The position numbers were made by a program, and so were the translations under genes. A stretch of 64,000 nucleotides of DNA, taken from assembly GCA_965213675.1 (NCBI GenBank), contig CBDCAF010000018.1, forward strand, positions 7,840 to 71,839. The letters run 5' to 3'. The notes below the pieces were generated by a model, which worked only from the letters and a program-made list of their open reading frames with translations, was not told where the DNA came from and did not search any database. Shown here in pieces: positions 36,893-62,661 of this stretch. This DNA is from an uncultured Candidatus Binatia bacterium. Its GTDB lineage: Bacteria; Desulfobacterota; Binatia; UBA9968; JAJDTQ01. The first letter of the stretch is position 1, and every line of letters begins with the position of its first letter.

Positions 36893-39800
36893 TTGGCCAA
36901 TTCTCGCAACTTCAGCGAATATGATAAAGCAACTACAGACTTGCCCGCACCGCTTGAGAGAACGCCCTTGGAAGACGCCGCCCGACTATTACCCGAACGT
37001 TTCCCCGACGTCGGGGAACTCGTCGAAGTGCGTTCACGCCGCTGGCTGGTGGAGGCGGTGGAGTCGGAATCGGGCCGCGTCAGCCTTGCCTGCGCGGACG
37101 ACGACGCCCAAGGGCAGACCCTGGAGGTCTACTGGGAATTCGAGATCGACCGGCGCATCCTTGAGGTGGAGGCGTGGAACGCCATCGGCGCCAAGGGGTT
37201 CGACGCGCCCCGCCACTTCAGCGCGTTCCTCCACACGTTGCGCTGGAACTGCGTCACCGCCACCGACCCGAATCTCTTCCAGTCGCCGTTCCGGGCCGGC
37301 ATCAAGATCGACGCCTACCAGATGGAGCCGCTCCGCAAGGCGCTTCGGCTGCCACGGGTCAATCTGTTCATCGCGGACGATACCGGCCTCGGCAAGACCA
37401 TTGAGGCCGGTCTCATCGCGCGGGAATTGTTGCTACGCAAGAAGGTCAAGACGATGGTCGTCGCCGCGCCGGCCTCCGTGCTGGAGCAGTGGAAGGCCGA
37501 GATGGAAGAGCGTTTCGGTCTGCTGTTCGTGATCCTCGACCGCGCTTACCTCACGCAGGTCCGGCAGGAACGCGGCTTCGGCGTGAATCCCTGGCGTACC
37601 CATAGCAGGTTCCTGGTGTCCCACAACCTGCTCATTGACCCGACCTACGCCGATCCGATGCGTGAGTGGCTCGGGGCTCTTCTGCCCGGCAGCCTGCTCA
37701 TCCTCGACGAGGCCCACCATGCCGCGCCGTCGAGCGGCGGGCGTTACGGCATCGAGTCGAAGTTCACCCGGGCGGTCCGTGATGTTGGCGGCCGGTTCGA
37801 ACACCGTCTGTTTCTGTCCGCCACTCCCCACAACGGCCACTCCAACAGCTTCTCCACGCTGCTTGAGCTGCTTGATCCGTACCGTTTTACCCGCGGCGTG
37901 CCGGTGCGGGGAAAGAAGGACCTCGACGAGGTCATGGTCCGGCGCATCAAGGAAGACATCCGCGAGGTGCAGGGCGGCTTCCCCAGACGGCACGTGGAGC
38001 CGGTTCGGATCGATGGCCTGCCGGACGACGCACCGGAACTCGTTTTGTCGAGGCTCCTTGACGAATATCGCGGCTTGCGGGAGCAGCGGCTGGCCGGCGC
38101 CAGGCCGCGAGCCCAGGCCATGGCCGGTTTGCTCGTGGTGGGGCTGCAACAGAAGCTCCTGTCATCCATCGAAGCGTTCGCCATCTCGCTCGCGCGGCAT
38201 CGCAGGACGATTGAGCGACTTTGGGCGCAAGACACTGAAGACGGTCAGAACGTCCCGGATACACGGGTTGAGACCGTGGCGACCGAACCATTTCTGAAAC
38301 TGTTCGCAAAACCGCCGGACGCGGACGACGAACGCGCGGAACAGACCGACGAAGAGAACGCGGCCGAGGAAGAGGCGCAGATCACGGCCATCAACGAGAC
38401 TGCCGAGCTAGGTACCCCCACGGATGAAGGAGCAAAGGCGGCTTGGGATAAGGAGCAGGCCCTCCTGACTCGTATGCACGAAGTCGCCGATGGCGCCCGC
38501 GGCCGCCCTGACGCCAAGACCCGCCGCCTGATCGACTGGATCTACGACAACCTCTGTCCCGACCGCCCGCGCTGGAACGAACGGCGGGTGCTGATCTTCA
38601 CCGAGAACGTGATCGGCACGAAACGGTACTTGCGCGAGATGCTGGAGCAGGCCATTGCCGGCACCGACTTCGCCGAGGAGCGCATCGAGACCATTGACGG
38701 CCAGACCGCCGGCGCCAGGCGCAAGGAGATTCAACGTCGCTTCAACGCCGATCCGGCCCACGATCCGTTACGCATCCTCATTGCCACAGACGCGGCGCGC
38801 GAGGGGCTGAACTTCCAGGCGCACTGCACCGACCTGTTCCACTTCGACCTGCCCTGGAACCCTGGCCGCATCGAACAGCGCAACGGCCGCATCGACCGCA
38901 AGCTGCAACCGGCCCCGGAGGTGCGCTGCCACTACTTCGTGCTGCCGCAGCGCGCCGAGGACCGGGTACTTGAAGTGCTGGTTCGGAAGACCGCCACCAT
39001 CAGGCAGCAGCTCGGCAGTCTCTCCAAAGTGATCGATGACGAGGTGGAGCGCCGGCTGCGCGAAGGCATCCGTCACGGAGACGTGGAGCGCATCGCGCGC
39101 GACATTGAGGCGGCCGATCTCGACCGTGAAAGGCGACGAGTAGCGGCCGAGGAACTGGAAGCCGCCCGCGAACGGCAGGACGACTTGAAGGGGCAGATCG
39201 AACGATGCCGCGGGCTGCTGGACCAGTCCCGCCGCTGGGTGCAGTTCGAGGCGCAACCCTTTCGCAACGCTCTGTCCTGTTCCCTGGAGATGCTGGGTGC
39301 GGAGCCGTTGAAGGAAACACGTACCGACGATGGCGGGGTGGTCTGGACGCTGCCGCCGCTGGCGGGCAAGGCGCGGGCGGATGCAAGTTGGACCGCCACA
39401 CTGGACACGTTGCGCGCGCCGCGCAAGACCGACCAGAAGCTCGCGGAATGGCGGCAGCAGGCGCCGATTCGTCCGGTGGTGTTCGAGGATGCGGGTGTGC
39501 TCACCGACGACACCGTGCATTTGCACCTGGAACAACGCATGGCGCAACGGCTGCTGGCGCGCTTTCGCTCCCAGGGCTTCGTCTACCATGACCTGTCCCG
39601 CGCCTGTCTCGTGCAGGCCGCGGACTCCGTCCCTCGGGTGATTCTGCTGGGGCGGCTGTGTCTCTTCGGACGCCATGCCGAGCGTCTGCACGAGGAGTTG
39701 ATCCCGGTGGCGGCCCGCTGGGTCGAGCCGTCGCGCCGCAACGGGCCGCTCAGGGCCTATGCCGAGGAGGCGGAAGCACGAACGCTGGAACGCCTGGAGA

Positions 39801-40234
39801 CGGCCTTGCAGAGCGCACGAGGCCCGAACGAGACGATTCACCGCAGGCTGCGCGACATTGCCGCTCAGGATATCGAAGACCTGCTGCCGCAACTCGAAGA
39901 CCGCGCCGAGGGTGTGGCCCGGAGCGCTGGGGACAGGCTTCGCGCACGTGGCGAAAGGGAGGGACAGCAGCTTCGGGAGACCCTGGAACGTCAGCGCCGG
40001 CGAGTGGAAACGGAACTCGGCAAGCACGAGGGCCGCGGAACCCAGCTCACGCTGGAGTTCAGTGAAGCCGAGAAGCGCCAGCTTCAGGCCGACATCGCGT
40101 CGTGGCGCGTGCGTCTGGACCGGTTCGACAAGGACCTTAAGACCGAACCGGCCCGGATCCGCGAGTTCTACGAAGTGCGGGCACAACGAGTCGAGCCCAT
40201 CGGCTTGGTGTACCTGTGGCCGGACACCGGTTGA
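36893..40234 (+). CDS. drmD: SNF2-family helicase, DISARM class 1 DrmD-like
   Basis: Contains DDTGLGKTIEAG, LILDEAHHAAP, LSATPHNG, IATDAAREGLNFQ, DLPWNPGRIEQRNGRIDR. TTG start, with no earlier in-frame start. Confidence 0.8.
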   Translation: MANSRNFSEYDKATTDLPAPLERTPLEDAARLLPERFPDVGELVEVRSRRWLVEAVESESGRVSLACADDDAQGQTLEVYWEFEIDRRILEVEAWNAIGAKGFDAPRHFSAFLHTLRWNCVTATDPNLFQSPFRAGIKIDAYQMEPLRKALRLPRVNLFIADDTGLGKTIEAGLIARELLLRKKVKTMVVAAPASVLEQWKAEMEERFGLLFVILDRAYLTQVRQERGFGVNPWRTHSRFLVSHNLLIDPTYADPMREWLGALLPGSLLILDEAHHAAPSSGGRYGIESKFTRAVRDVGGRFEHRLFLSATPHNGHSNSFSTLLELLDPYRFTRGVPVRGKKDLDEVMVRRIKEDIREVQGGFPRRHVEPVRIDGLPDDAPELVLSRLLDEYRGLREQRLAGARPRAQAMAGLLVVGLQQKLLSSIEAFAISLARHRRTIERLWAQDTEDGQNVPDTRVETVATEPFLKLFAKPPDADDERAEQTDEENAAEEEAQITAINETAELGTPTDEGAKAAWDKEQALLTRMHEVADGARGRPDAKTRRLIDWIYDNLCPDRPRWNERRVLIFTENVIGTKRYLREMLEQAIAGTDFAEERIETIDGQTAGARRKEIQRRFNADPAHDPLRILIATDAAREGLNFQAHCTDLFHFDLPWNPGRIEQRNGRIDRKLQPAPEVRCHYFVLPQRAEDRVLEVLVRKTATIRQQLGSLSKVIDDEVERRLREGIRHGDVERIARDIEAADLDRERRRVAAEELEAARERQDDLKGQIERCRGLLDQSRRWVQFEAQPFRNALSCSLEMLGAEPLKETRTDDGGVVWTLPPLAGKARADASWTATLDTLRAPRKTDQKLAEWRQQAPIRPVVFEDAGVLTDDTVHLHLEQRMAQRLLARFRSQGFVYHDLSRACLVQAADSVPRVILLGRLCLFGRHAERLHEELIPVAARWVEPSRRNGPLRAYAEEAEARTLERLETALQSARGPNETIHRRLRDIAAQDIEDLLPQLEDRAEGVARSAGDRLRARGEREGQQLRETLERQRRRVETELGKHEGRGTQLTLEFSEAEKRQLQADIASWRVRLDRFDKDLKTEPARIREFYEVRAQRVEPIGLVYLWPDTG

Positions 40235-40239
40235 GACCC

Positions 40240-43200
40240 ATGCCTGCGCCCGACCCACACACCCGCGCCCATCTCGAATGGCTCGGCTTCATCCAGCCGA
40301 ACGGCCTCGTGGTCTCCGCTCCGGCCCTGGTCAAGGCTGGGGCCATCCTCAACCGGCACGATGTCGAAGGGCAGGAGTTGCTGGACGCTTGGTTGAACCA
40401 ACGCGATGGATCGCCTGCGCGCCCTCGGGAACAGTGCCTCCAGGACTTCCGCGTATTCGCGAAGACCATCCTCGGCTGGGGTTTCTCGCCCAAGGGATAC
40501 GCGGGTACGGAGGAGACCCCTATCCCGGCGGCACTTAAGGTTCCTCTCCCCGACTACGGAGAGACGCTGCGTCCGGACTTCGCGGTGTGCGAGCGCGACC
40601 CGCAGGCCGGGGAATTGCCGTGGCAGTTGCTCGTGCAGGTGCTGGAAGAGGGTGAAGGCTTCGACAGGCCGACCGCCGGCGGACTGAAAACCTCTCCGCA
40701 GGATCGAATGGAGCGCCTCCTCCGCAGCACCGGAGTTCCTGCTGGTGTGCTCTTCAACGGCGCTGCGCTACGTCTCGTCTCGGCCCCGCGCGGCGAAAGC
40801 TCCGGCTGGATGGACTTTCGTTTGGCCGACATGGCCCAGACCGCGGGGCGGCCTCTGTGCGCGGCGTTGCGCCTTCTTTTGTGTGAGCAACGCCTGTTGA
40901 CAGGGCCGAAGGAACATCGCCTGGCGGCGCTGCTCGCCGACAGCCGCCGGTATCAGAACGAGGTCAGCGAGCGGCTTTCCGAGCAGGTCATGCACGCACT
41001 CTATGACCTCCTTCGAGGGTTCCAGGCGGCCCAGGACGAATCCCGCGGAGAGCTGCTGCGGGAACCGCTCTCCGCGGAAGGCGACCCCAACGACATCTAT
41101 CGCGGCCTTCTCGCCGTCATCCTCCGCCTCGTCTTTCTGCTCTACGCCGAGGAGCGCCGCATGCTTCCGGGCGGCGAGACCTTCATCCAGCACTATTCGG
41201 TTGGCGGCCTCTACCAGCGCCTGCGCGAGGAGGCGGCCTTGCACCCGGATACCATGGATCAGCGCTACGGCGCGTGGGCGCAGCTTCTCGTGCTGTTCCG
41301 CCTTATTCACGACGGGGCGGGTGGGCACAAGACCGGAGGCAGCGTCAGCCTTCCGGAACGCCGCGGCGTTTTGTTCAACCCGGATCGGTATCCGTTCCTC
41401 GAGGGCCGTCACAGCGGCGGCGGCCGGCAGATCACCGAGCGGGTCCAGCCGCCGCTGGTCTCCGACGGCGCCGTCTACCGGGTGCTGGAGAAGCTGGTAG
41501 TCCTCGACGGCGAGCGCATTTCCTACCGCACCCTGGACGTGGAACAGATCGGGTCCGTTTACGAGGTCATCATGGGCTTCCGTCTGGAGACCGCCACCGG
41601 CCGGTCCATGTCCGTCAAGTCCGCCAAGAAGCTTGGGGCGCCGAGCACCGTCGATCTCGACGAGTTGGCGAGACAGCCCGGCGAACGTCGTGGGAAATGG
41701 CTCCAGGACCGCGTGGACCGCACCCTCACCGACACCGTCAGGAAGGGACTGCGGGCAGCCGATACGGTGGATGACCTTCACTTGGCGCTGGACCGGGTGC
41801 TGGACAAGGACGCCACGCCGGACCTCGTCACTCCCGGCTCCCTGGTGCTGCAACCCAGTGATGAGCGCCGCCGCTCGGGCTCCAACTACACGCCGCGGGA
41901 ACTCACCGAACCGATTGTCCGCCACACTCTGGAGCCCCTGCTCAATCGGCTTCGCGGCGAGGATGGACAGGCACCGTCTCCCGCCCGGATTCTCGACCTC
42001 AAGATTTGCGATCCGGCCATGGGTTCCGGCGCCTTTCTGGTGGAAACCTGTCGCCAGCTCGCGGATGCGCTCACCGAGGCATGGCACAAGCACGATGAGA
42101 CGCCGGTAATCCCGCCTGACGAAGACGAGGGGATCCATGCCCGCCGTCTGGTCGCCCAGAAGTGCCTCTACGGCATCGACCGGAATCCCATGGCTGTGGA
42201 CCTGGCCAAGACCTCGCTGTGGCTCAGCACGTTGGCGCGGGACCACCCGCTCACCTTCCTGGACCACGCGTTCCGCCATGGCGACGCCCTCGTCGGATTG
42301 ACCCGGAAACAGGCCGAGGCGTTCCACTGGATCCCGGATAGACCTCCTGAAGAGGGTTTCGAGATCATGAGGGTGCGGGAACACATGACGGAGTTGGCCG
42401 CGCTGCGCCAGCGCATCAGGGACGCGGGCGAGGATGTCTCCGATCAAGAACTGCACGACATCTGGCAAGATGCGCGCGACGAGCTTGGCGCCGTCCGGCT
42501 CTACGGCGATCTGGCGCTGGCGGCGTTCTTCGCTGAAACCAAACGGGGGCCAAGGGAAGGGAAGAGGCGCGAATTCGCCGCAGCCGCCTGGGGTGGTCAG
42601 GCCGAGCGCTACCTGGGATGGATCGGGGACCAGCGCGGCAGCGACCCGCCGCTCGCTCCTTTCCACTGGGAAATCGAGTTCCCCGAGGTGTTCGAGCGCG
42701 AGAATCCGGGGTTCGACGCGTTCGTCGGGAACCCGCCGTTCGCCGGGAAAAATAGCGTCGTCGCTGGTAACGTCGTGGGTTATCCCGACTGGCTCAAGAC
42801 CGTCCACAGAGAGAGCCACGGCAACGCCGACCTTGTAGCGCACTTCTACCGGCGTGCGTTCAACCTCCTGCGTGAAGGGGGCGCGTTCGGTCTGATTGCC
42901 ACCAACACCATCGCCCAAGGCGATACCCGTTCCACCGGACTGCGCTGGATTTGCGAGAACAACGGCTCGATCTTCCGCGCCACCAAACGGGTCAAGTGGC
43001 CCGGCGACGCGGCCGTGGTGGTCAGCGTGCTGCACGTCGCCAAGGGCGAATTTGCAGGAACCAAGGTGCTCGACGGCAGGGATGTGGAGAACATCACCGC
43101 GTTCCTCTTCCACAAGGGCGGCCACGCCGACCCGGCGCGCCTCGAAGCGAACGCCGGCAAGAGCTTCCAGGGAAGCATCGTCCTCGGAATGGGCTTCACC

Positions 43201-45390
43201 TTTGACGACACGGACAAGAAGGGCGTCGCCAACCCGCTGTCGGAGATGCAGCGGCTGATCGAAGCAGACCCGCGCAACGGCGAGCGCATCTTCCCGTACA
43301 TCGGTGGCGAGGAGGTGAACACCAGCCCGACCCACGCCCATCACCGATACGTGATCAACTTTGAGGACTTTCCGTTGCGGAGGGAGGACCTGGGAAAGCA
43401 GTGGGCGGACGCGGGGGAAGACTTGCGCCGCACATGGCTGCGGCGCGGGGTGGTCCCGCTGGACTATCCGGAGCCGGTGGCAGCGGATTGGCCGGATTTG
43501 CTGGCGATTGTGGATGAGCGAGTGAGGCCGGAGCGAAGCAAGCTCACGAAGAATCCCATCGGTCGAAAGCGAGCGGAGTTCTGGTGGCGTTACGGCTCGA
43601 CGGCAAACGAACTCTACGCCGCCAGCGCCAGTCAGCCTCGAGTTTTGGTGATTTCGAGATACGGACAAGTTGCTGCATTCACGTTCTTGCCCGCCGGCGC
43701 TGTCTATAGCGATTCATGCATCATATTCCCGGTCGACACCTATGCCGCCCTGTGCGTCCTCCAGTCCCGCCCCCACGAGATCTGGGTGCGCTTCTTTGGC
43801 TCGTCGATGAAGGACGACCTCCGCTACACGCCATCCGACTGCTTCGAGACTTTCGCTTTTCCTGATGATTGGGCAACGGCCACGGCGCTGGAGGCCGCAG
43901 GCAAGGCGTATTTTGAGCACCGAGTGACGCTGATGCTCTGTAACGGTGAGGGTCTGACCAGAACCTTAAACCGCTTTCATGACCCCTACGATGGCAATCC
44001 GAATATCATCCGTCTCCGAGAACTCCACGCCGCCATGGACCGCGCCGTCCTCGACGCCTACGGCTGGACCGACATCCCCACCGACTGTGATTTCCTCCTC
44101 GACTACGAAATCGACGAGGCTACTTGGGGCGTGAAGAAAAAGCCGTACCGCTATCGCTGGCCCGACAAAATTTGCGACGAAGTCCTTGCTCGCCTTCTCG
44201 CCCTCAATGTTGAGCGTTCCGAAGAGGAAGCCCGTGCACGGCTGGTGCAGAAGCCGGTCCGAAAGAAACGCCATCGCGTCCTGATGGTGGCAGAACAACC
44301 TCCTCTCTGGGATCGTCCAATGACTGACCAGACTCCACAGCGGTTCACGCCGTTGGTGAAGCGCTCTCGTCCCAAGCCTTCGACGATCTATCCGGTTCTC
44401 TGGAAATTTGCGTGTGAGCGCCAGCGGGTCTATCTACGGCGCGTCGCAGGCGACCCAAGCCCGTGGACTACGGACACTGTGCTGTCAGAATACAAGTTCA
44501 CGAATGCCTTCAGAGCCGCTGACAGGGTGAGTCAGTACCTGATTCAGTTGATCTATTCTGATGCTAAGGCCAGCGGCGCCAACGTGTTTCTGAGAGCCCT
44601 TTTATTCAAGGTCTTCAACAAGATCGAGACGTGGGACAGGGTCGTTAACGGACTCGGCATGCCTGTCGCTCACGAGTTCGACTACGCGGCGTGCGACGAT
44701 TTGCTTGTCAATCTTCGTCGGCAGGGGGCGCCGATTTACTCCGCCGCTTACATCATGCCATCGGGAGGACGAGTCGGGATGCCGAAGCACCGGATGCATC
44801 TCGAACTGATTCGCAGAATGCTTGATGAACGCCTTCCGGAGAAGCTGCAGGAGTCGAAGTCGCTGGCTGAAGCCTACGAGATGGTTCTTTTGTATCCCAC
44901 GTTGGGACCCTTTCTCGCTTTCCAGTACGTTATCGACCTAAATTATTCGACCCTGATGAACCACTCGGAACAGAGATTCGTGGTTGCCGGCCCCGGCGCC
45001 TTGGATGGACTGTCCAAGTGCTTCGAGTCGCTTGGGGAGTATGATCCGGCCGACGCCATCCTATGGTTGTCCGACATCCAAGCGGACGAGTTCGCGCGGT
45101 ATGGACTCGAATTCGGGGGTCTATGGGGACGCCCGCTTCAGCCGATCGATGTCCAGAATCTGTTCTGTGAGGTCTCGAAGTACACTCGGGTGACACATCC
45201 AGAGATAAGAGGCCTGACCAAGCGTAAACGCATCAAGCAAAGATTTGCGATGACAGGGCCGCTCGCCAAGCCCTTCTTCCCGCCCAAATGGGGCTTGAAT
45301 CAACGAATTGACGAGTGGCTCCCGCGCCGAACGGGTGCAACTCTCGAACAACGCGAGCTTTTCTTCCCAACCCCAGCCAGGCCTACGTGA
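40240..45390 (+). CDS. drmMI: N6-adenine DNA methyltransferase (Eco57I/type IIG-like), DISARM DrmMI-like, fused to an extra C-terminal domain of about 356 aa (from 44320)
   Basis: SAM motif ICDPAMGSGAFLVE and catalytic FVGNPPFAGKN. ATG lies 5 nt after the drmD stop. The C-terminal part has no methylase motifs: LWKFACERQRVYLRR...PWTTDTVLSEYKFTNAFRAADRVSQYL. Confidence 0.8.
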   Translation: MPAPDPHTRAHLEWLGFIQPNGLVVSAPALVKAGAILNRHDVEGQELLDAWLNQRDGSPARPREQCLQDFRVFAKTILGWGFSPKGYAGTEETPIPAALKVPLPDYGETLRPDFAVCERDPQAGELPWQLLVQVLEEGEGFDRPTAGGLKTSPQDRMERLLRSTGVPAGVLFNGAALRLVSAPRGESSGWMDFRLADMAQTAGRPLCAALRLLLCEQRLLTGPKEHRLAALLADSRRYQNEVSERLSEQVMHALYDLLRGFQAAQDESRGELLREPLSAEGDPNDIYRGLLAVILRLVFLLYAEERRMLPGGETFIQHYSVGGLYQRLREEAALHPDTMDQRYGAWAQLLVLFRLIHDGAGGHKTGGSVSLPERRGVLFNPDRYPFLEGRHSGGGRQITERVQPPLVSDGAVYRVLEKLVVLDGERISYRTLDVEQIGSVYEVIMGFRLETATGRSMSVKSAKKLGAPSTVDLDELARQPGERRGKWLQDRVDRTLTDTVRKGLRAADTVDDLHLALDRVLDKDATPDLVTPGSLVLQPSDERRRSGSNYTPRELTEPIVRHTLEPLLNRLRGEDGQAPSPARILDLKICDPAMGSGAFLVETCRQLADALTEAWHKHDETPVIPPDEDEGIHARRLVAQKCLYGIDRNPMAVDLAKTSLWLSTLARDHPLTFLDHAFRHGDALVGLTRKQAEAFHWIPDRPPEEGFEIMRVREHMTELAALRQRIRDAGEDVSDQELHDIWQDARDELGAVRLYGDLALAAFFAETKRGPREGKRREFAAAAWGGQAERYLGWIGDQRGSDPPLAPFHWEIEFPEVFERENPGFDAFVGNPPFAGKNSVVAGNVVGYPDWLKTVHRESHGNADLVAHFYRRAFNLLREGGAFGLIATNTIAQGDTRSTGLRWICENNGSIFRATKRVKWPGDAAVVVSVLHVAKGEFAGTKVLDGRDVENITAFLFHKGGHADPARLEANAGKSFQGSIVLGMGFTFDDTDKKGVANPLSEMQRLIEADPRNGERIFPYIGGEEVNTSPTHAHHRYVINFEDFPLRREDLGKQWADAGEDLRRTWLRRGVVPLDYPEPVAADWPDLLAIVDERVRPERSKLTKNPIGRKRAEFWWRYGSTANELYAASASQPRVLVISRYGQVAAFTFLPAGAVYSDSCIIFPVDTYAALCVLQSRPHEIWVRFFGSSMKDDLRYTPSDCFETFAFPDDWATATALEAAGKAYFEHRVTLMLCNGEGLTRTLNRFHDPYDGNPNIIRLRELHAAMDRAVLDAYGWTDIPTDCDFLLDYEIDEATWGVKKKPYRYRWPDKICDEVLARLLALNVERSEEEARARLVQKPVRKKRHRVLMVAEQPPLWDRPMTDQTPQRFTPLVKRSRPKPSTIYPVLWKFACERQRVYLRRVAGDPSPWTTDTVLSEYKFTNAFRAADRVSQYLIQLIYSDAKASGANVFLRALLFKVFNKIETWDRVVNGLGMPVAHEFDYAACDDLLVNLRRQGAPIYSAAYIMPSGGRVGMPKHRMHLELIRRMLDERLPEKLQESKSLAEAYEMVLLYPTLGPFLAFQYVIDLNYSTLMNHSEQRFVVAGPGALDGLSKCFESLGEYDPADAILWLSDIQADEFARYGLEFGGLWGRPLQPIDVQNLFCEVSKYTRVTHPEIRGLTKRKRIKQRFAMTGPLAKPFFPPKWGLNQRIDEWLPRRTGATLEQRELFFPTPARPT

Positions 45391-46462
45391 TTTCGCGGTA
45401 AAGAAGTTGCCGTTGATTCATGTCGAGCGTTACGTGTCCTCCCTCGTGTTCCCGGAGAGACCTGAACACGCGATATCCTTTGAGAATGGCGGTTTCCCAC
45501 CGCCATAGGGGAAGTTTGGCGACCTCGAAGCCTTGTATGAACTCCTTTACGGCCTTGAGCAGGTCATAGTCGACCTGGTCGATATTGTCGTAGTAGTTCA
45601 TTTTCTTTGCCCGGCTGAATACAATGGCGGATACGGCCTCTTCGATAATTCTCGCCCGCGCACCGTCCTCGTTCTCGTCCACCAGTGGATCGCTCTTCCG
45701 CTTGCACTTCAGTAGGTGTCTTATGACAGGTGACCATCCGAGGTACACGGCGTAAGCGAAATGGAAAACATCGTGAAACCGGTAGAAGTCAGGCTGTCCG
45801 ATATTGTCCGTCAGGCGATCCCCGAAGTTCAGTCCGTTACACCGGAGTATGGCCGTCACCTTGCTGTCCCGCTGGACTTGGCGAAAGTCGATATCGAGTT
45901 TACGTGGGAGCTGTTCCTCTTCCGGGAAGCCCTCATCGAAGAAAGGTGGGACGACATACCTCTCGGGCCATCGGCTCTGCGTCTTTTCCTGGTTCGTTCG
46001 CGCGGCCTCGTAGAGGTCGACGCCGGCGCCTTCCGCAACGTGAAATAGGGCGTCCCAGGTTGGCCCAAGCCTTCCGGAATCCATTCGGTCACGGTTTTGC
46101 ACTGCACTGAGTAATTCGCCCGCCGCAACCCCGAGGGCCACTCCATCCCCCAAGGGTCCTGGGCTTCGCCCCGATAGGGCCTGCGCTCGCTTGTTCGCAC
46201 GGTTCAGTGCCGACGGATCAAGAATGGCGGAGAGGCGCGCCAAGTACCAAAGACAATCTCCGATTTCTTCGACGAGCCGCTTACGGTATGCGGGATAGGC
46301 GTCGGTTTCACGTTGTTCCTTTTTCAATTCGGCGAGAACACTCCCCGCTTCACCGAAAAGACCTGCCGCAAGGATGAGGGCGTGGTTCGGTTTGTCGACG
46401 AGTTGATCCGTTCGCTTTGCAGACTTGGCGTATTCAATGAGCCAAGACATCGGCTTTCTCAT
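45383..46462 (-). CDS. MazG-like (all-alpha NTP pyrophosphohydrolase) domain protein with a C-terminal extension
   Basis: Contains LAAGLFGEAGSVLAELKKEQRE...RLVEEIGDCLWYLARLS. C-terminal region has FGDRLTDNIGQPDFYRFHDVFHFAYAVYLGWSPV. The stop overlaps the drmMI 3' end by 8 nt. Confidence 0.65.
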   Translation of the reverse strand: MRKPMSWLIEYAKSAKRTDQLVDKPNHALILAAGLFGEAGSVLAELKKEQRETDAYPAYRKRLVEEIGDCLWYLARLSAILDPSALNRANKRAQALSGRSPGPLGDGVALGVAAGELLSAVQNRDRMDSGRLGPTWDALFHVAEGAGVDLYEAARTNQEKTQSRWPERYVVPPFFDEGFPEEEQLPRKLDIDFRQVQRDSKVTAILRCNGLNFGDRLTDNIGQPDFYRFHDVFHFAYAVYLGWSPVIRHLLKCKRKSDPLVDENEDGARARIIEEAVSAIVFSRAKKMNYYDNIDQVDYDLLKAVKEFIQGFEVAKLPLWRWETAILKGYRVFRSLREHEGGHVTLDMNQRQLLYREIT

Positions 46463-47228: not shown

Positions 47229-47857
47229 CACGTCACCTCCTCCGTGAGGGCCAGTAGGTCGCGTAGATGACGGGCGAGGAAGGCGTCGTCGAGCCATGCA
47301 TGGCCGTTGTCACCCCATTCGGCACCCCAGCTATTCCTGACCAGGAAGCACCGCGATGTATCGGCGGTCCCCAAACCGACCGCTACGACTGCGTGAAGAC
47401 CTCGGATCGGGCCGTCGTGCGAGATTAACCAAAGAGGTGTAGGCGACAAAAAGTCGTCTGGTATGGAAATGCCGAGAACAGGCGTTTGCCCAGCGTTTAG
47501 CAGGGTTTCGACCTCATCTGCGGTAGCATCCTTCTGAACGCTCTTGCGTGGGTACAGTCGCACGCCTGCCGGTGGCATCCAGCCGAGAGGCAAACCGTCG
47601 GGATAGTAGGGGCAGTCTGCTTCCGCGGGCTGCCCAGGGTCTTGCAGGGCACGAGATGTCTCCAGGAATGCTGCGCCATCCGTCGGATTGTGGACCGACG
47701 CAAAGTAGTGGAGATACTCCGGCGAGAGCGCCATCTTGGAGCCGCGCACGCGTTCGTGTGCGCTCGTGCAGGCAAATGATAGACATGTGGGCCGGGCGCC
47801 CTGGTCCCGAATCGGGCCGAGGCTTTGCCGGTGGTCGACGAGAACGGTGATGTTCAT
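47228..47857 (-). CDS. Papain-family (C1) cysteine peptidase without a signal peptide
   Basis: Contains IRDQGARPTCLSFA (Gln/Cys), GLHAVVAVGLG (His), VRNSWGAEWGDNGHAWL (Asn). Its ATG overlaps the upstream stop (ATGA). Confidence 0.75.
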   Translation of the reverse strand: MNITVLVDHRQSLGPIRDQGARPTCLSFACTSAHERVRGSKMALSPEYLHYFASVHNPTDGAAFLETSRALQDPGQPAEADCPYYPDGLPLGWMPPAGVRLYPRKSVQKDATADEVETLLNAGQTPVLGISIPDDFLSPTPLWLISHDGPIRGLHAVVAVGLGTADTSRCFLVRNSWGAEWGDNGHAWLDDAFLARHLRDLLALTEEVT

Positions 47858-48837
47858 GCTGCATTTGCCAGTGCGTCGAGTTTGGCTTTTCTCGGGAAGC
47901 CGCCGGATTCCTTTCCATGAGCATCGATTTTGATCGCGATATGGTCGAGTGTCGCGCCGCTCCATGGGCGGGCGTGTTCAAAGGCGAGTCGATGTGTGCC
48001 AGGAGTATTGAAACGGACATACACGACACGGGCTGAAGGCCGTCCATAGACTCTGTCCGAGTCTGCTGTGTGCTCTGCGATGACCTCGGAGCTGGCTCCG
48101 GTGTCGATGAGCCTCCAGATGTAGCCGGCGGAAACGTTGTCCTCCAGATGGACTGCGAAGAGATCGTCGGGTCCGGCTTCGAGAAACGTGTCGGTGTCAC
48201 CACAGGTCAAAGCCCAGACGTCGGCCCAGGAGTTCGTGATCAGTTCTGCGGGTGCCAACGCCCGCTTCAGTTCCTTGACCGGCGTCGCTTCGAGTTGTTT
48301 GGCTTCCGCGCGCGTAAGGACCTTGGACGTTACCAAACCCCAGCATGCGGCTTGGTAGCTGATGCCCAAGCGAAGGGAAAGTTGGTAGATGTTGCGCGGT
48401 TGATGCAGCTCTTGCCTTTTCCAGCCATGGCGTGTGGCGGATTCTACCATGAGCTGTTTTGATGCCAGCAGCTCCGAGGCAAAGGTGTCAGCGGCCACCT
48501 CCTCAATCGCACGTGACCCTGAAGCGTGACGTCCCGCGAACCCAACGGTTTTATCCAGGCTTGACTCATGCCCCAGCACCCAGTGTCCGAGCTCGTGGGC
48601 CAGTGTAAACCGCTGAACGGCCAGTCCCATGCGACTCGTAACGATGATGCCTCGGGCACCCTTGCCAGCGGGAACAACGGCGCCCCAAAGATGATCCAGC
48701 GGCCGAAAGACGAGGGGGATGTCCCGCGTGGTGATCGCGCTGACAATGTCGAAACTGGTGCGGTCACTCTTGGCAGTTGAGGCGAGAATCTTGGCTGCTT
48801 CTCTGACGGCTCGCAAAGTCTCGTTACGTCTGTTCAT
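47854..48837 (-). CDS. ImmA/IrrE-type Zn metallopeptidase domain fused to a chagasin-like (I42) cysteine-peptidase inhibitor domain
   Basis: HEXXH motif LAHELGHWVLGH. The C-terminus FAVHLEDNVSAGYIWRL...PGTHRLAFEHARPWSGA matches chagasin NPTTGFAW...AGTHAVNLTYMRPWTGP. Confidence 0.75.
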   Translation of the reverse strand: MNRRNETLRAVREAAKILASTAKSDRTSFDIVSAITTRDIPLVFRPLDHLWGAVVPAGKGARGIIVTSRMGLAVQRFTLAHELGHWVLGHESSLDKTVGFAGRHASGSRAIEEVAADTFASELLASKQLMVESATRHGWKRQELHQPRNIYQLSLRLGISYQAACWGLVTSKVLTRAEAKQLEATPVKELKRALAPAELITNSWADVWALTCGDTDTFLEAGPDDLFAVHLEDNVSAGYIWRLIDTGASSEVIAEHTADSDRVYGRPSARVVYVRFNTPGTHRLAFEHARPWSGATLDHIAIKIDAHGKESGGFPRKAKLDALANAA

Positions 48838-49186
48838 CCGGTTTCCTCGACCGCAGGAATTGGGCGAAACGAAGAACCTCCTCCCGGTCGGTCACCGACA
48901 GTTCAGCGGTCGCCCGTGCTACCAGTCGTACCGACTCCGGCTCCGGGCTCTCCAGATCGGGTCCGGTGAGGCTCTCCATGTTGGTCTGATAGAGCGTGGC
49001 AAGGCGCTGAAGTTCCAATGCATCGACACGTCGCGCCCGATTCTCCATGAGTGAAATGGCGGATCTGGGAAGGCCGAGATGTGCGGCAACCTCTTCCTGG
49101 GTGAACCCGCAGTATTCCCGCGCCTCCTTTAGCCGCGTGCTCAGGGTGCCACGCTTGGCTGGCTGGCCGTGATTATCGTCGTTCAT
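48824..49186 (-). CDS. XRE-family helix-turn-helix transcriptional regulator
   Basis: Contains LKEAREYCGFTQEEVAAHLGLPRSAISLMENRARRV. 14-nt overlap with the ImmA-like gene. Confidence 0.85.
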   Translation of the reverse strand: MNDDNHGQPAKRGTLSTRLKEAREYCGFTQEEVAAHLGLPRSAISLMENRARRVDALELQRLATLYQTNMESLTGPDLESPEPESVRLVARATAELSVTDREEVLRFAQFLRSRKPDEQT

Positions 49187-49220
49187 TTACCACCTCCAAT
49201 CGGATGGGTTGGCGTCAAGC

Positions 49221-49616: not shown

Positions 49617-49650
49617 AACGGAACAAGATTAGCACCGTAATGTTCGAAAG

Positions 49651-50322
49651 TCAAACATTGCGTTGGGGCAATTCCGGCTGTTGTGACAACAAGGCAACTG
49701 AGCCCACCCAGGGACGGACGGCGGTGGTGCAGCAAACCTCTACAGCGATTCGGTCGAAATGAGCAACGCCGTTCATCATCCCTTGTGGCGCAACTTCCTT
49801 CCACGAGAGTCGTACGTTGTCGTAGCCGAATCGGACACCAAGAACAGGGTTCAAAGCCTTGAAAACGGCTTCCTTCACCGACAGTAGGATCACCGAGCCT
49901 GCAACACCCCAGTCCAGAGGCAACTCGTCGGACGCGATCAGTCCTTTGATTGACAGGAGTTCCCGACCGCGGTCCAGAGTCTCGATGTCGATGCCGACGG
50001 ACCTCACGTGACTGATCCGAGATAGCCCAGCCACAACTTTGGTGCCTTTATGGCTCACGCTCCCCGTGTAACCCGGTGGCCAGTCTCGGGCGCCGGAGGC
50101 GAGGTGCCCTGGCTCATTGGCAGACAGCCCAGCACTCTCCAGCAGATTGGTCAGACAGGTCGCCGTGGCCTTCCGTCTCGCGCGTTCCACGACGGGGACA
50201 CGTTCAGCGGACAGGACGTCCTGAGGGCCTGGTAGCCAATGCGCAAAAGAACCGCCCCTGATGCTCACTTCAGGTGCCAAGCGTTTGAGTTCGTCAACGA
50301 GGGGGTCACGTTGCAGATACAT
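49651..50322 (-). CDS. 4'-phosphopantetheinyl transferase (EntD/Sfp-type)
   Basis: Trimmed to MYLQRDPLVDEL. Contains WPPGYTGSVSHKG, VGIDIE, LSVKEAVFKAL. Confidence 0.75.
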   Translation of the reverse strand: MYLQRDPLVDELKRLAPEVSIRGGSFAHWLPGPQDVLSAERVPVVERARRKATATCLTNLLESAGLSANEPGHLASGARDWPPGYTGSVSHKGTKVVAGLSRISHVRSVGIDIETLDRGRELLSIKGLIASDELPLDWGVAGSVILLSVKEAVFKALNPVLGVRFGYDNVRLSWKEVAPQGMMNGVAHFDRIAVEVCCTTAVRPWVGSVALLSQQPELPQRNV

Positions 50323-50504
50323 GGTTTGATTTTTGCCGTTTACGGGTCTGCGTGGGGTCGATATCGGTTGGGTGCCGTGACGACGGCTGGCTTCTCGTTG
50401 TCTCCCGTGCCCCAGTTCTTCCGCTTGGGGCATATCGTCTCATCGGGTAACCTATTCTATAGGCCGCCGGTTCCGTGGGCGAGCCCCCATTGGACGCGAT
50501 CCTG

Positions 50505-50922: not shown

Positions 50923-51420
50923 ATGACACGCAGGGTGTTCTACAGCTTTCACTACAACGCCGACAACTGGCGAGCTGCCATGGTGCGCAATATCGGCAGT
51001 ATCGAAGGGAGCAGCCCCGCATCGGACAACGACTGGGAGGCCGTGAAGAGGGGCGGGGAAGCAGCGATCAGGAAATGGATCGCCAACCAAATGCAATACC
51101 GCTCCTGTACAGTCGTACTGGTCGGGTCGAATACTGCGAACCGCAAGTGGATCAACCACGAAATCGTCAAGTCGTGGGATGACGGTATGGGTGTGATAGG
51201 GATCCACATTCACGGGCTGAAGGATGCCGACGGCAATACGTCAGCCCGAGGAGCCAATCCGTTTGACTTCATCACGCTTGGAGATTCTGCGAAGCGGCTA
51301 TCATCCATAGTGAGGTGTTGTGTTCCCGGCGGCAGCAATAGTCAGGAGAAATATGCCTGGATCTCGAAGCACCTCGCGAATGCAGTAGAAGAAGCCATAA
51401 AAATACGAAACAATAATTGA
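50923..51420 (+). CDS. ThsB-like TIR domain protein (DUF1863 / MTH538 TIR-like)
   Basis: Contains RVFYSFHYNADNWRAAMVRN, CTVVLVGSNTANRKWINHEI, GVIGIHIHGL. Confidence 0.7.
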   Translation: MTRRVFYSFHYNADNWRAAMVRNIGSIEGSSPASDNDWEAVKRGGEAAIRKWIANQMQYRSCTVVLVGSNTANRKWINHEIVKSWDDGMGVIGIHIHGLKDADGNTSARGANPFDFITLGDSAKRLSSIVRCCVPGGSNSQEKYAWISKHLANAVEEAIKIRNNN

Positions 51421-52673
51421 AGACCGCTATCGTCTGTATGAAAGCATCCATCGAGCAACCCAACCCTGGAGCCGATCCCGGAACGATCACGCGCGTAGCC
51501 CTGCGTAACTACAAAAGCATTGCCGCCTGCGATGTCGAGTTGACGCCGCTCACTGTCCTCGTGGGTCCCAACGGTTCCGGCAAGAGTAATTTCCTTGACG
51601 CCCTGTGCTTTGCGGCGCAGGCATTGCGTTTTTCTCTGCACCATGCTGTACACGAGCGCGGTGGGATCAACGAGGTGCGCCGGCTTTCCCACGGCCATCC
51701 CAACCGCTTTGGCATCCGTCTGGATTTCCGTTTGTCCGACGCAACAGGGTGGTACGCGTTCAAGATCGGAGTGCGACGGAACGGCGGCTGTGTCGTACAC
51801 CGCGAGGAATGTGCTATCCAACACGCCGACCCTGGAGAAAGGCAGTATTTCCGAATAGGCGACGGTCGTCTACTGTCTACCTCCATCCCACACCCGCCGC
51901 CGACAGGTGGAAGTGACCGACTTTACCTACAGTCGGCCTCAGGATTTCGAGCGTTCCGGCCGATTTACGATATGTTGGCGGGAATGGGGTTCTACAATCT
52001 CAAGCCGGACCGGATTCGAGACTTCCAGTCGCCGGACCGCGGGGATCTCCTCAAACGGAATGGAAGCAACATCGCCAGCGTTCTCGCCAACCTTGAGTCA
52101 CGTTCCCCAGAGGTTGCAACACGGGTCGGCCAATACCTGTCCAAGGTCGTCCCGGGAACGGTCGGCGTGGCGTCGAAGACGGTCGGACCCAAGCTGACCC
52201 TGGAGTTTTGTCAGCAGGTGCGTGGCGATCCGCACCCTCGGCGGTTTCTTGCCAACAACGCTTCAGAAGGGACGTTGCGGGTCGTCGGGGTACTCGTAGC
52301 GCTTTGTCAGAGTATCGGAGTGGAATCGGGGAACGTGAAACTGGTCGGCATCGAAGAACCGGAAGGCACCCTTCACCCTGCGGCTGCCGGAGTGCTGTCC
52401 GACATACTGCGCGAGGCGAGCGAGCGTGTGCAGGTTGTCGTCACCAGCCAGAGTGCGGACTTGTTGGATCGGAAAACGATTCCATTGGAATCCATCCTGG
52501 CGGTCGTCTCCGAGGACAATGAGACGAAAATTGCCCGGCTTGATGCGGCAGGCCACACGGCACTCCGGGAAGATATGTTCACGGCGGGGGAGATGCTTCG
52601 GATGAATCAGCTTACGCCGAATCCAAAGCAGGTGGCGCCCGTTCACCTGGACCTCTTCCGTAAGGAGGAGTAG
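51417..52673 (+). CDS. ABC/SMC-type AAA ATPase (AAA_21/COG4637-like)
   Basis: Walker A LVGPNGSGKSNFLDAL, signature-like ASEGTLRVVGVL, Walker B LVGIEEPEGTLHP. The TTG start overlaps the TIR stop by 4 nt. An alternative ATG is at 51438. Confidence 0.75.
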   Translation: MKTAIVCMKASIEQPNPGADPGTITRVALRNYKSIAACDVELTPLTVLVGPNGSGKSNFLDALCFAAQALRFSLHHAVHERGGINEVRRLSHGHPNRFGIRLDFRLSDATGWYAFKIGVRRNGGCVVHREECAIQHADPGERQYFRIGDGRLLSTSIPHPPPTGGSDRLYLQSASGFRAFRPIYDMLAGMGFYNLKPDRIRDFQSPDRGDLLKRNGSNIASVLANLESRSPEVATRVGQYLSKVVPGTVGVASKTVGPKLTLEFCQQVRGDPHPRRFLANNASEGTLRVVGVLVALCQSIGVESGNVKLVGIEEPEGTLHPAAAGVLSDILREASERVQVVVTSQSADLLDRKTIPLESILAVVSEDNETKIARLDAAGHTALREDMFTAGEMLRMNQLTPNPKQVAPVHLDLFRKEE

Positions 52674-52698
52674 GGGAAGGTGTCAAGGAGGCGTGTTC

Positions 52699-53461: not shown

Positions 53462-53842
53462 ATGACCTACCGAGAGCCATTGCCCCCTGGATGTCCGCCG
53501 AACCCCGCGGACGAAATCAACCTGCCACGTGAGCTGTTCCGGTTGGTGCGGAGCCTTCCACCCGCCGCAGAGGACTTCAGATCGTGGCGCGCGGAACAAC
53601 CGCAACGCGGTTTACCGAAGGAGTTGACGGAGTGCCAAGCCCGGGGACTGTCGGTCTATGCAGAGCGCTACGACCTGGAGAGCATCTTGAAGCTCCCGAA
53701 GTTCCGCGGACGTTGGATCTGTCGCCTGCGGCTGGGAGCGGGCGCGGGCCGGATTCAACAGACGGGGAGACCTTCGCACCATACTTGGTGGCCGCTGGCT
53801 GATTACGATTTCCTCGGCCAGTGTCACGTGGAAACGGCATGA
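53462..53842 (+). CDS. Hypothetical protein translationally coupled to drmA
   Basis: 126 aa. Its stop overlaps the drmA ATG (ATGA at 53839-53842). Composition resembles the flanking DISARM genes. No motif recognised. Confidence 0.55.
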   Translation: MTYREPLPPGCPPNPADEINLPRELFRLVRSLPPAAEDFRSWRAEQPQRGLPKELTECQARGLSVYAERYDLESILKLPKFRGRWICRLRLGAGAGRIQQTGRPSHHTWWPLADYDFLGQCHVETA

Positions 53843-56800: not shown

Positions 56801-57621
56801 AGCTCACGTCGCGGGTCAGCGCCGACCAGGTGGCCGTGGCGCGCCGGCGGCTGGAACGTCCCTTTTTTGATGACGAGCACAACGAGCGGGTGGACTGCGC
56901 CATCGCCACCAACATGATTTCCGTGGGACTGGATATCCAGCGGCTGGGGTTGATGGTGGTGAACGGACAACCGAAGACTCATGCCGAGTACATTCAGGCC
57001 ACCAGCAGGGTGGGGCGGGACGACAGCCGCCCGGGGCTCGTGGTCACGCTCTATAACGTCCACAAACCGCGGGACCGGTCCCACTACGAGCAGTTCCTGA
57101 ACTACCACAACACGTTCTATCGTTCGGTGGAGGTCGTCAGCGTGACCCCCTTCGCCGCGCGGGCGCTGGACCGAGGTTTCGCGGGCGCGCTGGTCGGACT
57201 GGCCCGGCATGGCCGTTCGCGGATGACGCCACGGACTGGCGCGCAGGACATCGAAGCAGAGCGCGCGGTGCTGGAGCCCCTGCTGCTTCACGCTTTCGAG
57301 GAGCGAGTGCGCGGCCAGCCGGTTCAGGACGACGCGGAACGCGACGAGCGGCTGCGCAGCGTTCGGCGTCGCGTCGGCGACCTGCTCGATTCCTGGACCG
57401 CCATTTGGCAGGACTACCGTGCCAGCGGCGCGGCCATGCAGTACCAGCGTTATGAACGGGGGGGCGTGGAGAAACCGTTGCTCAGGGACATGCTGGATGC
57501 GGATTTCGAGTCGGAGCACCACAGGAAGTTTTGCGCCAACCGCTCGCTCCGCGATGTCGAGCCCGCGGTGGACCTTTACGTGCAGGACCTCCCAAGCGCC
57601 CTGGATGGGGGCGGTGGATGA
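53839..57621 (+). CDS. drmA: DEAD/DEAH-type helicase, DISARM DrmA-like
   Basis: Contains LFFPTGGGKTEAYLGLAAF, VIQDEMHLISGPLG, ASTATV, IATNMISVGLDIQRLGLMVVNGQPKTHAEYIQATSRVGR. Confidence 0.8.
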   Translation: MSTIRYTASLLYYDGPQIIEARDDEGHDYLALLVESDGEDRYLAVEVAADRLHQFRNGSLDLRTLLTESAKNGWYLTTTADLDQPLTIVRQQTPVGESGFLPADGFVLHELGSPVERKQESVEMPTRPPKLADSAEARAEITRALRLDLVGPGADGYLADEQLPGWVRPSNWYLTGFLVPRYAGFEQRADADSDDEMEPEVCEDIGAGDDSSEDRRAAKAGFFPSSMGLSFLAAPGTDRVTAVVRWGDYRKVEGKVSAEEGSELPVRWQRTRCEATLSMVLPEDNSPRHLPVPHSRGLEVHVVARTMDASLFAGKIARDTRSVSVFLVNARAPAEDDRRDEAFAFQAQIEVQSDVPFAVRPDLRPVSGDNWDERVADLHYADVPEYASGHGVAATWEVRGGACHALRTDWTPIAEVEHTEPLTHLARTELDMTALGRLADGEAVRTALMPLVSGYREWVEAHALGDLPEQRKEVARELLHRARLAARRMEKGIGVLASDVEARDAFCMANRAVAAALARRIEDPPRWRAFQLAFVLLNLPGIADPSDPEREIVDLLFFPTGGGKTEAYLGLAAFTMALRRLRNPADNGRAGAGVSVIMRYTLRLLTLDQLGRAAALVCAMELERKRDVERYGVWPFEIGLWVGKAGTPNWLGKKGDRNSDSARAKVNRYKDNPQARPIPIPLENCPWCAHRFTPDSFALLPNADAPTDLRISCSNWECEFSGDPPLPIVAVDEPLYRRLPAFLIATVDKFASLPWVGQSGALLGGADRFDDEGFYGAADPRTGNPLTTPLLPPDLVIQDEMHLISGPLGTMTGLYEAAIETLCVREAEGRIVRPKIVASTATVRQAHEHIQALFARPDTQVFPPPGPDRRDSFFARTVPAAEKNARQYVGVVAQGRNPKVVMRRVLLALMAAAERVWRDAGGPGNKQNPADPYMTALGYFNSLRELGGARRILEEEVQNTLKGYSNRKRLNEATSLFRDRTRFSDVVELTSRVSADQVAVARRRLERPFFDDEHNERVDCAIATNMISVGLDIQRLGLMVVNGQPKTHAEYIQATSRVGRDDSRPGLVVTLYNVHKPRDRSHYEQFLNYHNTFYRSVEVVSVTPFAARALDRGFAGALVGLARHGRSRMTPRTGAQDIEAERAVLEPLLLHAFEERVRGQPVQDDAERDERLRSVRRRVGDLLDSWTAIWQDYRASGAAMQYQRYERGGVEKPLLRDMLDADFESEHHRKFCANRSLRDVEPAVDLYVQDLPSALDGGGG

Positions 57622-59447: not shown

Positions 59448-59480
59448 TACGCCATGAAATCGTCACTTCCGCCTCGCCCC

Positions 59481-59600: not shown

Positions 59601-59739
59601 GATGGAGACGGATGGAGATGACCCTCGAATATGCCTGGGTGTACGGGTACGTTAGTTGACATCCCCTCCGCCCATATACTACGCTTTGCTTCCAGCCTCG
59701 GCATGGCTTTCCGGACGACATTGTAGGCGGCGATGCTTC

Positions 59740-62636: not shown

Positions 62637-62661
62637 ACAGCGAAGTCCGGGGGCACGGGAC

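Follow-up and report, generated by a model that had tools for sequence, protein, structure and literature searches.

Thymidine-hypermodifying phages encode proteins of the HMUDK_hel family (Pfam PF18723; aGPT-Pplase clade 1), the one component of their modification gene sets that is still without an assigned function. SP10 gp186 has been described as a fusion of a kinase with an aG/PT-PPlase, and ViI gp160 and M6 gp55 as paralogous 'DNA-glycosylase-fold' genes (Lee et al. 2018, PMC5889632). M6 gp54 and gp51 suffice for the glycinyl-thymidine reaction in vitro (Lee et al. 2021, PMC8989533), and gp55 is therefore dispensable. On the bacterial side, the newly validated defence domains of the DefensePredictor study (PMC13092281) include thymidylate synthase (TS) and a domain annotated as 5-hydroxymethyluracil (5-hmU) kinase. 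Its E. coli system DS-4 ('NTTI'), composed of TS, dNMP kinase, HMUDK_hel, TIR and Nmad2, was validated as a defence system and lowered the plating of lambda by about 0.9 log, with smaller plaques; systems with MazG, MazG-C and aGPT-Pplase were predicted there, not validated. Payne et al. (bioRxiv 10.1101/2024.01.29.577857) found embedded genes to be frequent in DISARM and used 'guilt by embedding' for DISARM, BREX and type I restriction-modification. Here, we analyse an HMUDK_hel module that is fused in frame to DrmMI, the N6-adenine methylase of a DISARM locus, in a 64,000-nucleotide stretch (the window; contig CBDCAF010000018.1 of assembly GCA_965213675.1) from an uncultured Candidatus Binatia bacterium.

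Results

A DISARM methylase carries an HMUDK_hel module

The open reading frame (ORF) at 40216..45390 (+) runs over 1724 codons with zero internal stops. Its likely start is the ATG at 40240, directly after the drmD stop, which gives a product of 1716 aa. Residues 15-1354 match positions 6-1332 of the PADLOC DrmMI model PDLC02643 (1347 positions) with 1261 bits, and the methylase is therefore complete before the module begins. This part carries the DPAMGSG and NPPF methylase motifs and the Pfam domains Eco57I, MmeI_Mtase, MmeI_TRD and N6_Mtase. An earlier note, written from the letters of this DNA alone, had described a separate in-frame C-terminal module at 44320-45390. The open frame and the end of the methylase profile bear this out, and the peptide strings that it quoted (ICDPAMGSGAFL, NPPFAGKN, MTDQTPQRF, LWKFACERQRVYLRRVAGDPSPWTTDTVLSEYKFTNAFRAADRVSQYLIQ, GPFLAFQYVIDLNY and VVAGPGALDGL) are all located in the translation. 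The note had also said beforehand that the module should be checked as a possible normal part of DrmMI. It lies outside canonical DrmMI: the DrmMI profiles stop short of it, and the DrmMI proteins of relatives are 1365-1371 aa long and end at their own stop.

Residues 1391-1665 of the fused protein match PF18723 at E 8.2e-93 (311 bits, with a cut-off of 25 bits; profile positions 3-280 of 281), and the module searched by itself does so at E 3.1e-94. NCBI names proteins of this family 'putative DNA base hypermodification protein'. The last 356 residues match no further Pfam family even at E<=1 and nothing in NCBIfam, and neither Pfam nor inspection of the sequence reveals a kinase family or a Walker A (P-loop) motif in the module. 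All invariant columns of 37 homologs are present, including C283 and E284, the C-E pair in QNLFCEVSKYTR. The AlphaFold2 model of the module, made with the alignment of these 37 homologs, is all-helical (pLDDT 84.6, pTM 0.81), in agreement with the note's picture of a helix-rich domain that has no P-loop and is not the kinase itself.

In a Foldseek search of predicted viral structures (BFVD), the model matched the 5-hmdU DNA kinase of Bacillus phage SP10 (E 7.6e-13, TMq 0.73), so that profile and fold both support the note's assignment to the hypermodification family (aGPT-Pplase / HMUDK helical). Further BFVD matches were 'helical domain-containing' and 'Pplase1 ... clade 1' proteins, and weaker ones were amino-acid:DNA-transferase (AADT) proteins (template-modelling score, TM, 0.38-0.48). 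The top PDB fold match was the PaMx11 gp46 5-PmdU glycinyltransferase (8z2n, PUGT; probability 0.98, TM 0.35/0.42), followed by the human queuine-salvage enzyme DUF2419 (probability 0.57). As no PDB fold match reached E 1e-3 and a PDB sequence search with the family profile returned no match, the module has no close relative with a solved structure.

Two other identities were considered and ruled out. For an AADT, the module gave no match to PF18724 (aGPT-Pplase clade 2, AADT) at E<=1, and hhalign of the family against M6 gp51 gave a probability of 0.5. For the 5-hmdU DNA kinase enzyme, no P-loop kinase domain (PF18748 or thymidylate-kinase-like) is present in the module or the cassette genes of the window. 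The module is a member of the HMUDK_hel clade, neither of the transferase clade nor a kinase.

A single-base deletion joined two genes

The proteins closest to the module stand alone and are 353-365 aa long; the best of them has 356 aa, the same Met start, 89% identity and 100% query coverage. HMUDK_hel is a separate gene in L004-L007, L010, L011 and L013. In L004/L005/L006 and L007 the order is drmD, drmMI (1365-1366 aa), HMUDK_hel (356 aa) and then a convergent operon for MazG-MazG_C, the TS-like enzyme, the C1 peptidase, the M78+I42 protein and the helix-turn-helix (HTH) protein, with drmA further on in L007.

In these unfused relatives the start of the module gene, with its ATG, and the end of drmMI, with its stop, share 8 nt (CCAAATGACTGA / ATGACTGA). 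Overlaps of this kind are typical of translationally coupled genes, and this one is kept in L004/L005/L006, L007, L010 (a Binatia metagenome-assembled genome, MAG) and L011 (a Thermodesulfobacteriota MAG). In the context ...CGTCCAAATGACTGA, the drmMI frame reads CCA AAT GAC TGA and the module frame ATG ACT GAC; in the alignments these relatives read ..AAATGACTGA or ..GGATGACTGA. The junction stretch of the window, CGTCCAATGACTGA, has two A in its A-run (44319-44320) against three in the unfused relatives, and the former drmMI stop TGA (44325-44327) is out of frame. Because one A has been lost from the overlap, the drmMI frame runs exactly onto the module ATG, and 44320..45390 is the exact extent of the former stand-alone gene. 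The module is ancestrally a separate gene, joined to drmMI by a single-base deletion. Neither a promoter-like site nor an excess of terminator-like sites over shuffled sequence was found around the junction. At its other end, the module gene (+) converges with the MazG-MazG_C gene (-), and the two share their last 8 nt (45383-45390), as they do in L004-L007.

The fusion is shared with a diverged relative and under selection

A sequencing error or private frameshift was suspected first, all relatives then known being unfused, and was dropped once a diverged contig showed the same deleted form. JGI metagenome contigs were scanned for the junction pattern with either form (AA or AAA) permitted, and two contigs were returned, Ga0209020_1001951 (L091) and MKWU01003858.1 (L092), both with the AA (deleted) form. 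They are identical to each other over 6.6 kb and are therefore counted as one organism; the window has 87.9% DNA identity to them over 5.6 kb. L092 contains an intact 1719-aa DrmMI::HMUDK_hel ORF with the junction ...LWDRPMTDQTPQRF... as in the window. Between the two, dS is about 0.25, and dN/dS is 0.16 in the DrmMI core, 0.17 in the last 60 residues before the junction and 0.155 in the module (0.14-0.18 for the module across comparisons). In pairwise nucleotide identities of the module among six sequences, the window and L092 are mutually closest (92.4%), L004 and L007 form a pair (93.8%), and L010 and L011 are the most distant.

The earlier note had named an assembly error as what would undo its claim. 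The same junction in an independent contig at 87.9% identity, together with purifying selection on the fused gene, rules such an error out. The fusion is a shared derived character of a small clade (the window with MKWU01003858 / Ga0209020_1001951), kept by selection, and it is young, a one-base event.

The C-terminal ~290 residues of the DrmMI part (target-recognition-domain region, 43456-44316) are much more diverged than the remainder. Their identity to L004/L007 is 63-64%, against 88-89% for residues 1-1080, and to L092 76%, against 92%. G+C also falls in this region, to 0.59 from 0.66, both in L004/L007 and in the window. The pattern resembles swapping or diversification of the target-recognition domain.

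Methylase fusions of HMUDK_hel are rare but recurrent

The note had proposed a survey for the same fusion, and the outcome was mixed: it recurs outside the window/L092 clade (L008/P0124, P0166, and L009 with another methylase), but DrmMI is fused to the module in 0 of 80 GTDB species genomes that carry the module. The full-length fusion is likewise absent among the best 150 of 7669 matches in 1.84 billion representative proteins. P0123 (L008) and P0124, from two different long-read assemblies, have in common an in-frame linker of ~70 residues from the DrmMI C-terminus to the module, and a canonical DrmMI tail was not found in another frame of either. P0166, a fragment of 200 aa, passes from a frameshifted DrmMI tail into the module. 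L009 has the module in frame, and lacking a Met, behind the C-terminal end of another methylase, a type IIG restriction-methylase (PADLOC PDLC03614, positions 1186-1572 of 1584), whose gene is itself interrupted upstream. Finally, in a methylase fusion unrelated to these, P0205 (L093 8001-11024), on a phage-like contig with a DNA polymerase A and an intein-containing gene, is a single 1007-aa protein with NADAR, HMUDK_hel and N6_N4 DNA methylase domains. Fusion of HMUDK_hel to methylases is rare but recurrent, and has arisen independently; a functional link between module and methylase is possible.

The module belongs to a widespread cassette

Relatives of the module were found in 583 species genomes or more. 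For 80 of these, the window's own proteins were searched against the 10-kb flanks (phmmer); since divergent members escape phmmer, the neighbour counts are minimum values. MazG(-MazG_C) was the commonest neighbour (62/80 loci), followed by the M78 peptidase (58/80), the TS-like enzyme (50/80), the papain-like peptidase (28/80) and the gene resembling 4'-phosphopantetheinyl transferase (PPT; 13/80), and at least one of MazG, TS-like and M78 was present in 75/80. Any DISARM gene was found in 10/80 loci, eight of which belong to the closest clade (>=65% module identity). The distant versions have a co-directional order, M78 - TS - HMUDK_hel - MazG, on one strand. A Walker A / thymidylate-kinase-like P-loop domain lies N-terminal to HMUDK_hel in 16/80 loci (the bacterial '5-HMUDK' architecture), and HMUDK_hel is C-terminally fused to MazG-MazG_C in L055, L072, P0139, P0146 and P0149. 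A general pairing of the module with a preceding large methylase was rejected: outside the DISARM clade, none of 17 loci checked has a large methylase or large ORF in front of it.

HMUDK_hel thus belongs to the core of an independent, mobile and widespread cassette, which in one lineage lies between drmMI and drmA. The home of the HMUDK_hel domain is this embedded accessory cassette, not DISARM. The fusion described in the note is real and selected, but the module did not originate in DISARM: it is ancestrally a separate cassette gene, with DISARM nearby in only 10 of the 80 loci.

The P-loop + HMUDK_hel fusions (L021, L028, L029, L042, L053, L057, L058, L088 and others) lie near locus position 9200-11000 inside M78 - TS - kinase/HMUDK_hel - MazG operons, and their architecture is that of phage 5-hmU DNA kinases. 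Separately, we observed decayed DISARM loci around an intact HMUDK_hel gene: L010 and L011 keep C-terminal fragments of DrmMI upstream, and L001-L003 keep DrmD and DrmA fragments. As these fragments persist beside an intact HMUDK_hel gene, they suggest that the module outlives the system in which it was embedded.

The DISARM locus and its cassette in the window

The core genes of the DISARM locus are separated by an insert of ~8.4 kb between drmMI and drmA (Table 1). The cassette within it (45383-50433, minus strand) has a G+C of 0.56-0.58 against 0.65.

Table 1 Coordinates of the DISARM genes, the fusion junction and the embedded genes in the window
Feature	Position	Strand	Basis
drmD, SNF2-type helicase, class 1 DISARM	36893..40234	+	PADLOC PDLC02621 E 2.8e-303; Pfam SNF2-rel_dom, Helicase_C
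DrmMI part of the fused ORF, N6-adenine methylase with MmeI-type target-recognition domain	40216..44319	+	PADLOC PDLC02643 and Pfam
Fusion junction CCAATGACTGA	44317..44327	+	Alignment with unfused relatives
HMUDK_hel (aGPT-Pplase clade 1) module, 356 aa	44320..45390	+	PF18723; Pfam domain 44386-45210
MazG pyrophosphohydrolase fused to MazG_C	45383..46462	-	PF18722 MazG_C E 1.8e-78; PF03819 MazG
Thymidylate-synthase-like enzyme, probable start 47228, 264 aa	46434..47297	-	Pfam Thymidylat_synt weak, E 5e-5; PHROG thymidylate synthase
Papain-like (C1) cysteine peptidase, probable start 47857, 209 aa	47228..47965	-	Pfam Peptidase_C1 E 7e-10
CapP-like M78 metallopeptidase with chagasin-type (I42) inhibitor domain	47854..48837	-	PADLOC capP E 7e-16; Pfam Peptidase_M78, Inhibitor_I42; HELGH
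CapH-like HTH regulator	48824..49186	-	PADLOC capH E 1.1e-11; Pfam HTH_31, HTH_3
4'-phosphopantetheinyl-transferase-like gene	49651..50433	-	Weak Pfam ACPS, 4PPT_N
HEC-01A-like ABC ATPase	51417..52673	+	PADLOC PDLC04178 E 7e-150; Pfam AAA_21, AAA_15
drmA	53821..57621	+	PADLOC DrmA PDLC02575 E 2.6e-277
drmB	57531..59447	+	PADLOC DrmB PDLC02583 E 2.7e-80; Pfam MZB

Aligned to TS of the PDB, the TS-like protein keeps the catalytic P-C, R-S-x-D and P-x-N (dUMP-binding) motifs, and the Gln/Cys/His/Asn catalytic set of the C1 peptidase is intact in the translation. Against PDB sequences, MazG-MazG_C and the TS-like protein had marginal matches only, and the PADLOC models include none for the module, MazG_C, the TS-like or the C1 protein. 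Pfam scans of the window found no 5-hmU DNA kinase domain and no AADT. A PPT-like homolog accompanies the cassette in L007-L009. In the sister genome L092 the fusion and MazG-MazG_C are retained, but Nmad2 and an 8xMP membrane protein take the place of the TS-like, C1, CapP and CapH genes; the replacement is at L092 262-927 (+) and L091 6820-7503 (-), and Nmad2 matches PF18753 at E 1e-68.

Several side observations concern the neighbouring genes. The papain-like protease, a cytoplasmic enzyme with an intact catalytic set, is directly downstream of the CapP-like M78-chagasin gene (47228-48837, -), and this protease/inhibitor pair is possibly a toxin-antitoxin-like effector switch. The HEC-01A-like ATPase (51417-53049 region) is a candidate for a second, separate system embedded in the DISARM locus; a short ORF after it (52693-53049) has by eye the look of a ParD-type antitoxin, and the ATPase is broken into fragments in L091. 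DrmD, DrmA and DrmB are present, but none of the ORFs tested 3' of drmB (59448-62700) matched DrmC (PLD nuclease); drmC may be missing from this locus or divergent.

Discussion

The sequences show the structure of the fused gene, how it arose, the selection on it and its association with the embedded cassette. We consider it reasonably probable that the module is a reader or an enzyme for 5-substituted uracil that works with the cassette. The fold relatives of the HMUDK_hel module and the obligate association of its family with 5-hmU chemistry in phages suggest a DNA-binding, base-flipping protein, which would act together with the cassette rather than with the methylation chemistry. The cassette itself would be the co-opted early (pre-replicative) half of a phage thymidine-hypermodification pathway, with a dUMP hydroxymethylase-like enzyme, a dNTP pyrophosphatase and sometimes a kinase. 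In our model, a 5-modified dUMP, for instance 5-hm-dUMP, would come from the TS-like enzyme, and MazG-MazG_C would reshape the pyrimidine dNTP pool. A CapH/CapP pair keeps a system repressed, and here this switch may hold the toxic activity off until infection or DNA damage. New (phage) DNA would then take up the aberrant thymidine analogue, which HMUDK_hel would recognise. Most likely, the fusion hard-wires the 1:1 co-production already given by translational coupling, and tethers the reader to a DNA-bound methylase.

Several points weigh against this model. HMUDK_hel has no known biochemical function, and M6 gp55 is dispensable in vitro (PMC8989533). The window cassette contains neither the P-loop kinase nor an AADT, and the known phage pathway therefore cannot be completed. 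The match of the TS-like enzyme is weak (E 5e-5), and its product could be dTMP or 5-hm-dUMP; the core genes of the cassette are covered by no PADLOC model. The sister L092 has Nmad2 and the membrane protein where the window has the TS-like, C1, CapP and CapH genes, so that a TS-based step is not essential to the role of the fused protein. In addition, the recurrent methylase fusions could point to the module acting directly with the methylase, a role that our model treats as secondary.

Of the alternatives, the one that survives best, although we regard it as unlikely, is that the module is a reader arm against hypermodified phages: it would recognise 5-hmU-derived bases or nucleotides, MazG-MazG_C would destroy modified dNTPs, and the tether would let DISARM see DNA that it otherwise misses. 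HMUDK_hel proteins are native to phages that hypermodify thymidine (504 phage records match the family, ViI-like and M6-like phages among them), the predicted fold resembles base-flipping enzymes acting on 5-PmdU, several independent lineages have the module translationally coupled or fused to a large defence methylase, and L092 keeps only the fusion, MazG-MazG_C and Nmad2. However, a harmless sensor does not readily account for a TS-like biosynthetic enzyme or for repression by a CapH/CapP switch. DS-4, the sole tested system with HMUDK_hel, acted on lambda, whose thymidine is unmodified, and most family members have no adjoining restriction system.

We hold as rather doubtful a broader proposal, in which HMUDK_hel is the physical partner of large defence methylases and, as a tethered reader, tells 5-hydroxymethyl-uracil-type DNA from normal DNA, the base coming either from the TS-like/MazG cassette or from hypermodified phages. 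If true, DISARM would gain a second, thymidine-based self/non-self channel, and the independent fusions (window/L092, L008/P0124, P0166, the type IIG methylase of L009 and the phage NADAR-HMUDK_hel-N6_N4 protein) would be a Rosetta-stone signature.

It is improbable that DrmMI::HMUDK_hel and the cassette put a thymidine-derived modification on host DNA beside N6-methyladenine (m6A), the second self-mark that the earlier note had put forward. The fusion or coupling to a methylase, with both parts under selection, would suit such a mark, as would TS-like and MazG enzymes that could supply 5-hm-dU nucleotides and a phage protein joining NADAR, HMUDK_hel and N6_N4 DNA methylase in one chain. Yet the 5-hmU DNA kinase and the AADT that it needs were not found in the window, a capH/capP-type repression switch is ill-suited to a constitutive mark, DISARM is absent near the module in 70 of the 80 genomes, and the sister genome has no TS-like gene; because of these points, we rank the self-mark below both our model and the reader arm. 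The stand-alone phage homolog is, moreover, dispensable for modification in vitro.

Finally, an artefact or decay, that is, an error in the short A-run or a recent inactivating frameshift toward a pseudogene, is very improbable. In its favour, the nearest unfused relatives all have one A more and two genes, some other 'fusions' (L008, P0124, P0166) come from contigs with several frameshifts, and the fused protein and the 356-aa protein of the window are both missing from a 15-billion-protein collection in which the adjoining MazG protein is present, absences that would fit an annotator calling a frameshifted pseudogene. This reading is largely refuted by the identical junction in an independent JGI/GenBank contig about 12% diverged, by two fused ORFs intact over ~1716 codons with dN/dS of about 0.16 on either side of the junction, and by the lack of any other frameshift between the window and L004/L007 across DrmD, DrmMI and the cassette genes.

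The selected fusion and the conserved stop/start overlap tie HMUDK_hel to an m6A methylase, and the cassette, found in 583 or more species genomes, looks like a phage pathway for DNA modification that bacteria have put to new use. The fused and unfused loci are a natural pair differing by one base, which makes the function of the domain testable and bears on what it binds and on whether bacteria use thymidine analogues in immunity. Even if the link to the methylase were incidental, the locus would be a clean example of an embedded defence gene fusing to its host system.

Comparison with known systems

The phage HMUDK_hel proteins M6 gp55, Salmonella phage ViI gp160 and the C-terminal half of SP10 gp186 belong to the same PF18723 family as the window module. 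M6 gp55 (323 aa, stand-alone, adjoining the P-loop kinase gp54) matches the profile with 190 bits (E 8e-56), against 311 bits for the window, and BLASTP aligns it with the module at 26% identity over nearly the full length (E 7e-21), with the C-E motif common to both. Both in phages and among the bacteria-side relatives, HMUDK_hel exists stand-alone and fused. In phages it is found beside or fused to a P-loop 5-hmU DNA kinase, alongside an AADT, whereas in the window neither is present and it is fused to a 1360-aa N6-adenine methylase. AADTs (aGPT-Pplase clade 2) have a distantly related helical, glycosylase-like fold, with a TM of only 0.35-0.48, and like the module they have a conserved cysteine near an acidic residue (PMC8989533). 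M6 gp51, a proven glycine:DNA transferase, belongs to PF18724, and profile comparison found no homology between it and the module.

The head of the cassette operon, with its capP and capH matches, is like the CapH/CapP pair of CBASS and other defence operons. In the window, the CapP-like M78 protein has a C-terminal chagasin (I42) domain and is followed by the papain-like peptidase. We know of no description of a CapP with a chagasin domain and an adjoining papain-like peptidase.

The 340-aa 'putative DNA base hypermodification protein' of DS-4 is a PF18723 protein by profile match. DS-4 and the window cassette have only a TS(-like) enzyme and HMUDK_hel in common. The dNMP kinase, TIR and Nmad2 of DS-4 were not found in the window cassette by Pfam scans, although Nmad2 is present in the sister L092; unlike DS-4, the cassette has MazG-MazG_C, a papain-like protease and CapP-chagasin/CapH, and its module is fused to DrmMI. 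Full-text literature searches gave no paper on an HMUDK_hel domain in or beside DISARM, or fused to a defence methylase, in line with the earlier note's statement that such a fusion had, to its knowledge, not been described.

The embedded systems of Payne et al. likewise insert between core genes, as the cassette and the HEC-01A-like ATPase do between drmMI and drmA. Payne et al. make no mention of MazG, thymidylate synthase or a cassette of this type, and in the window the embedded gene is fused to a gene of the host system. The finding is a variant of two known kinds, the embedded defence cassettes and the HMUDK_hel-containing defence systems.

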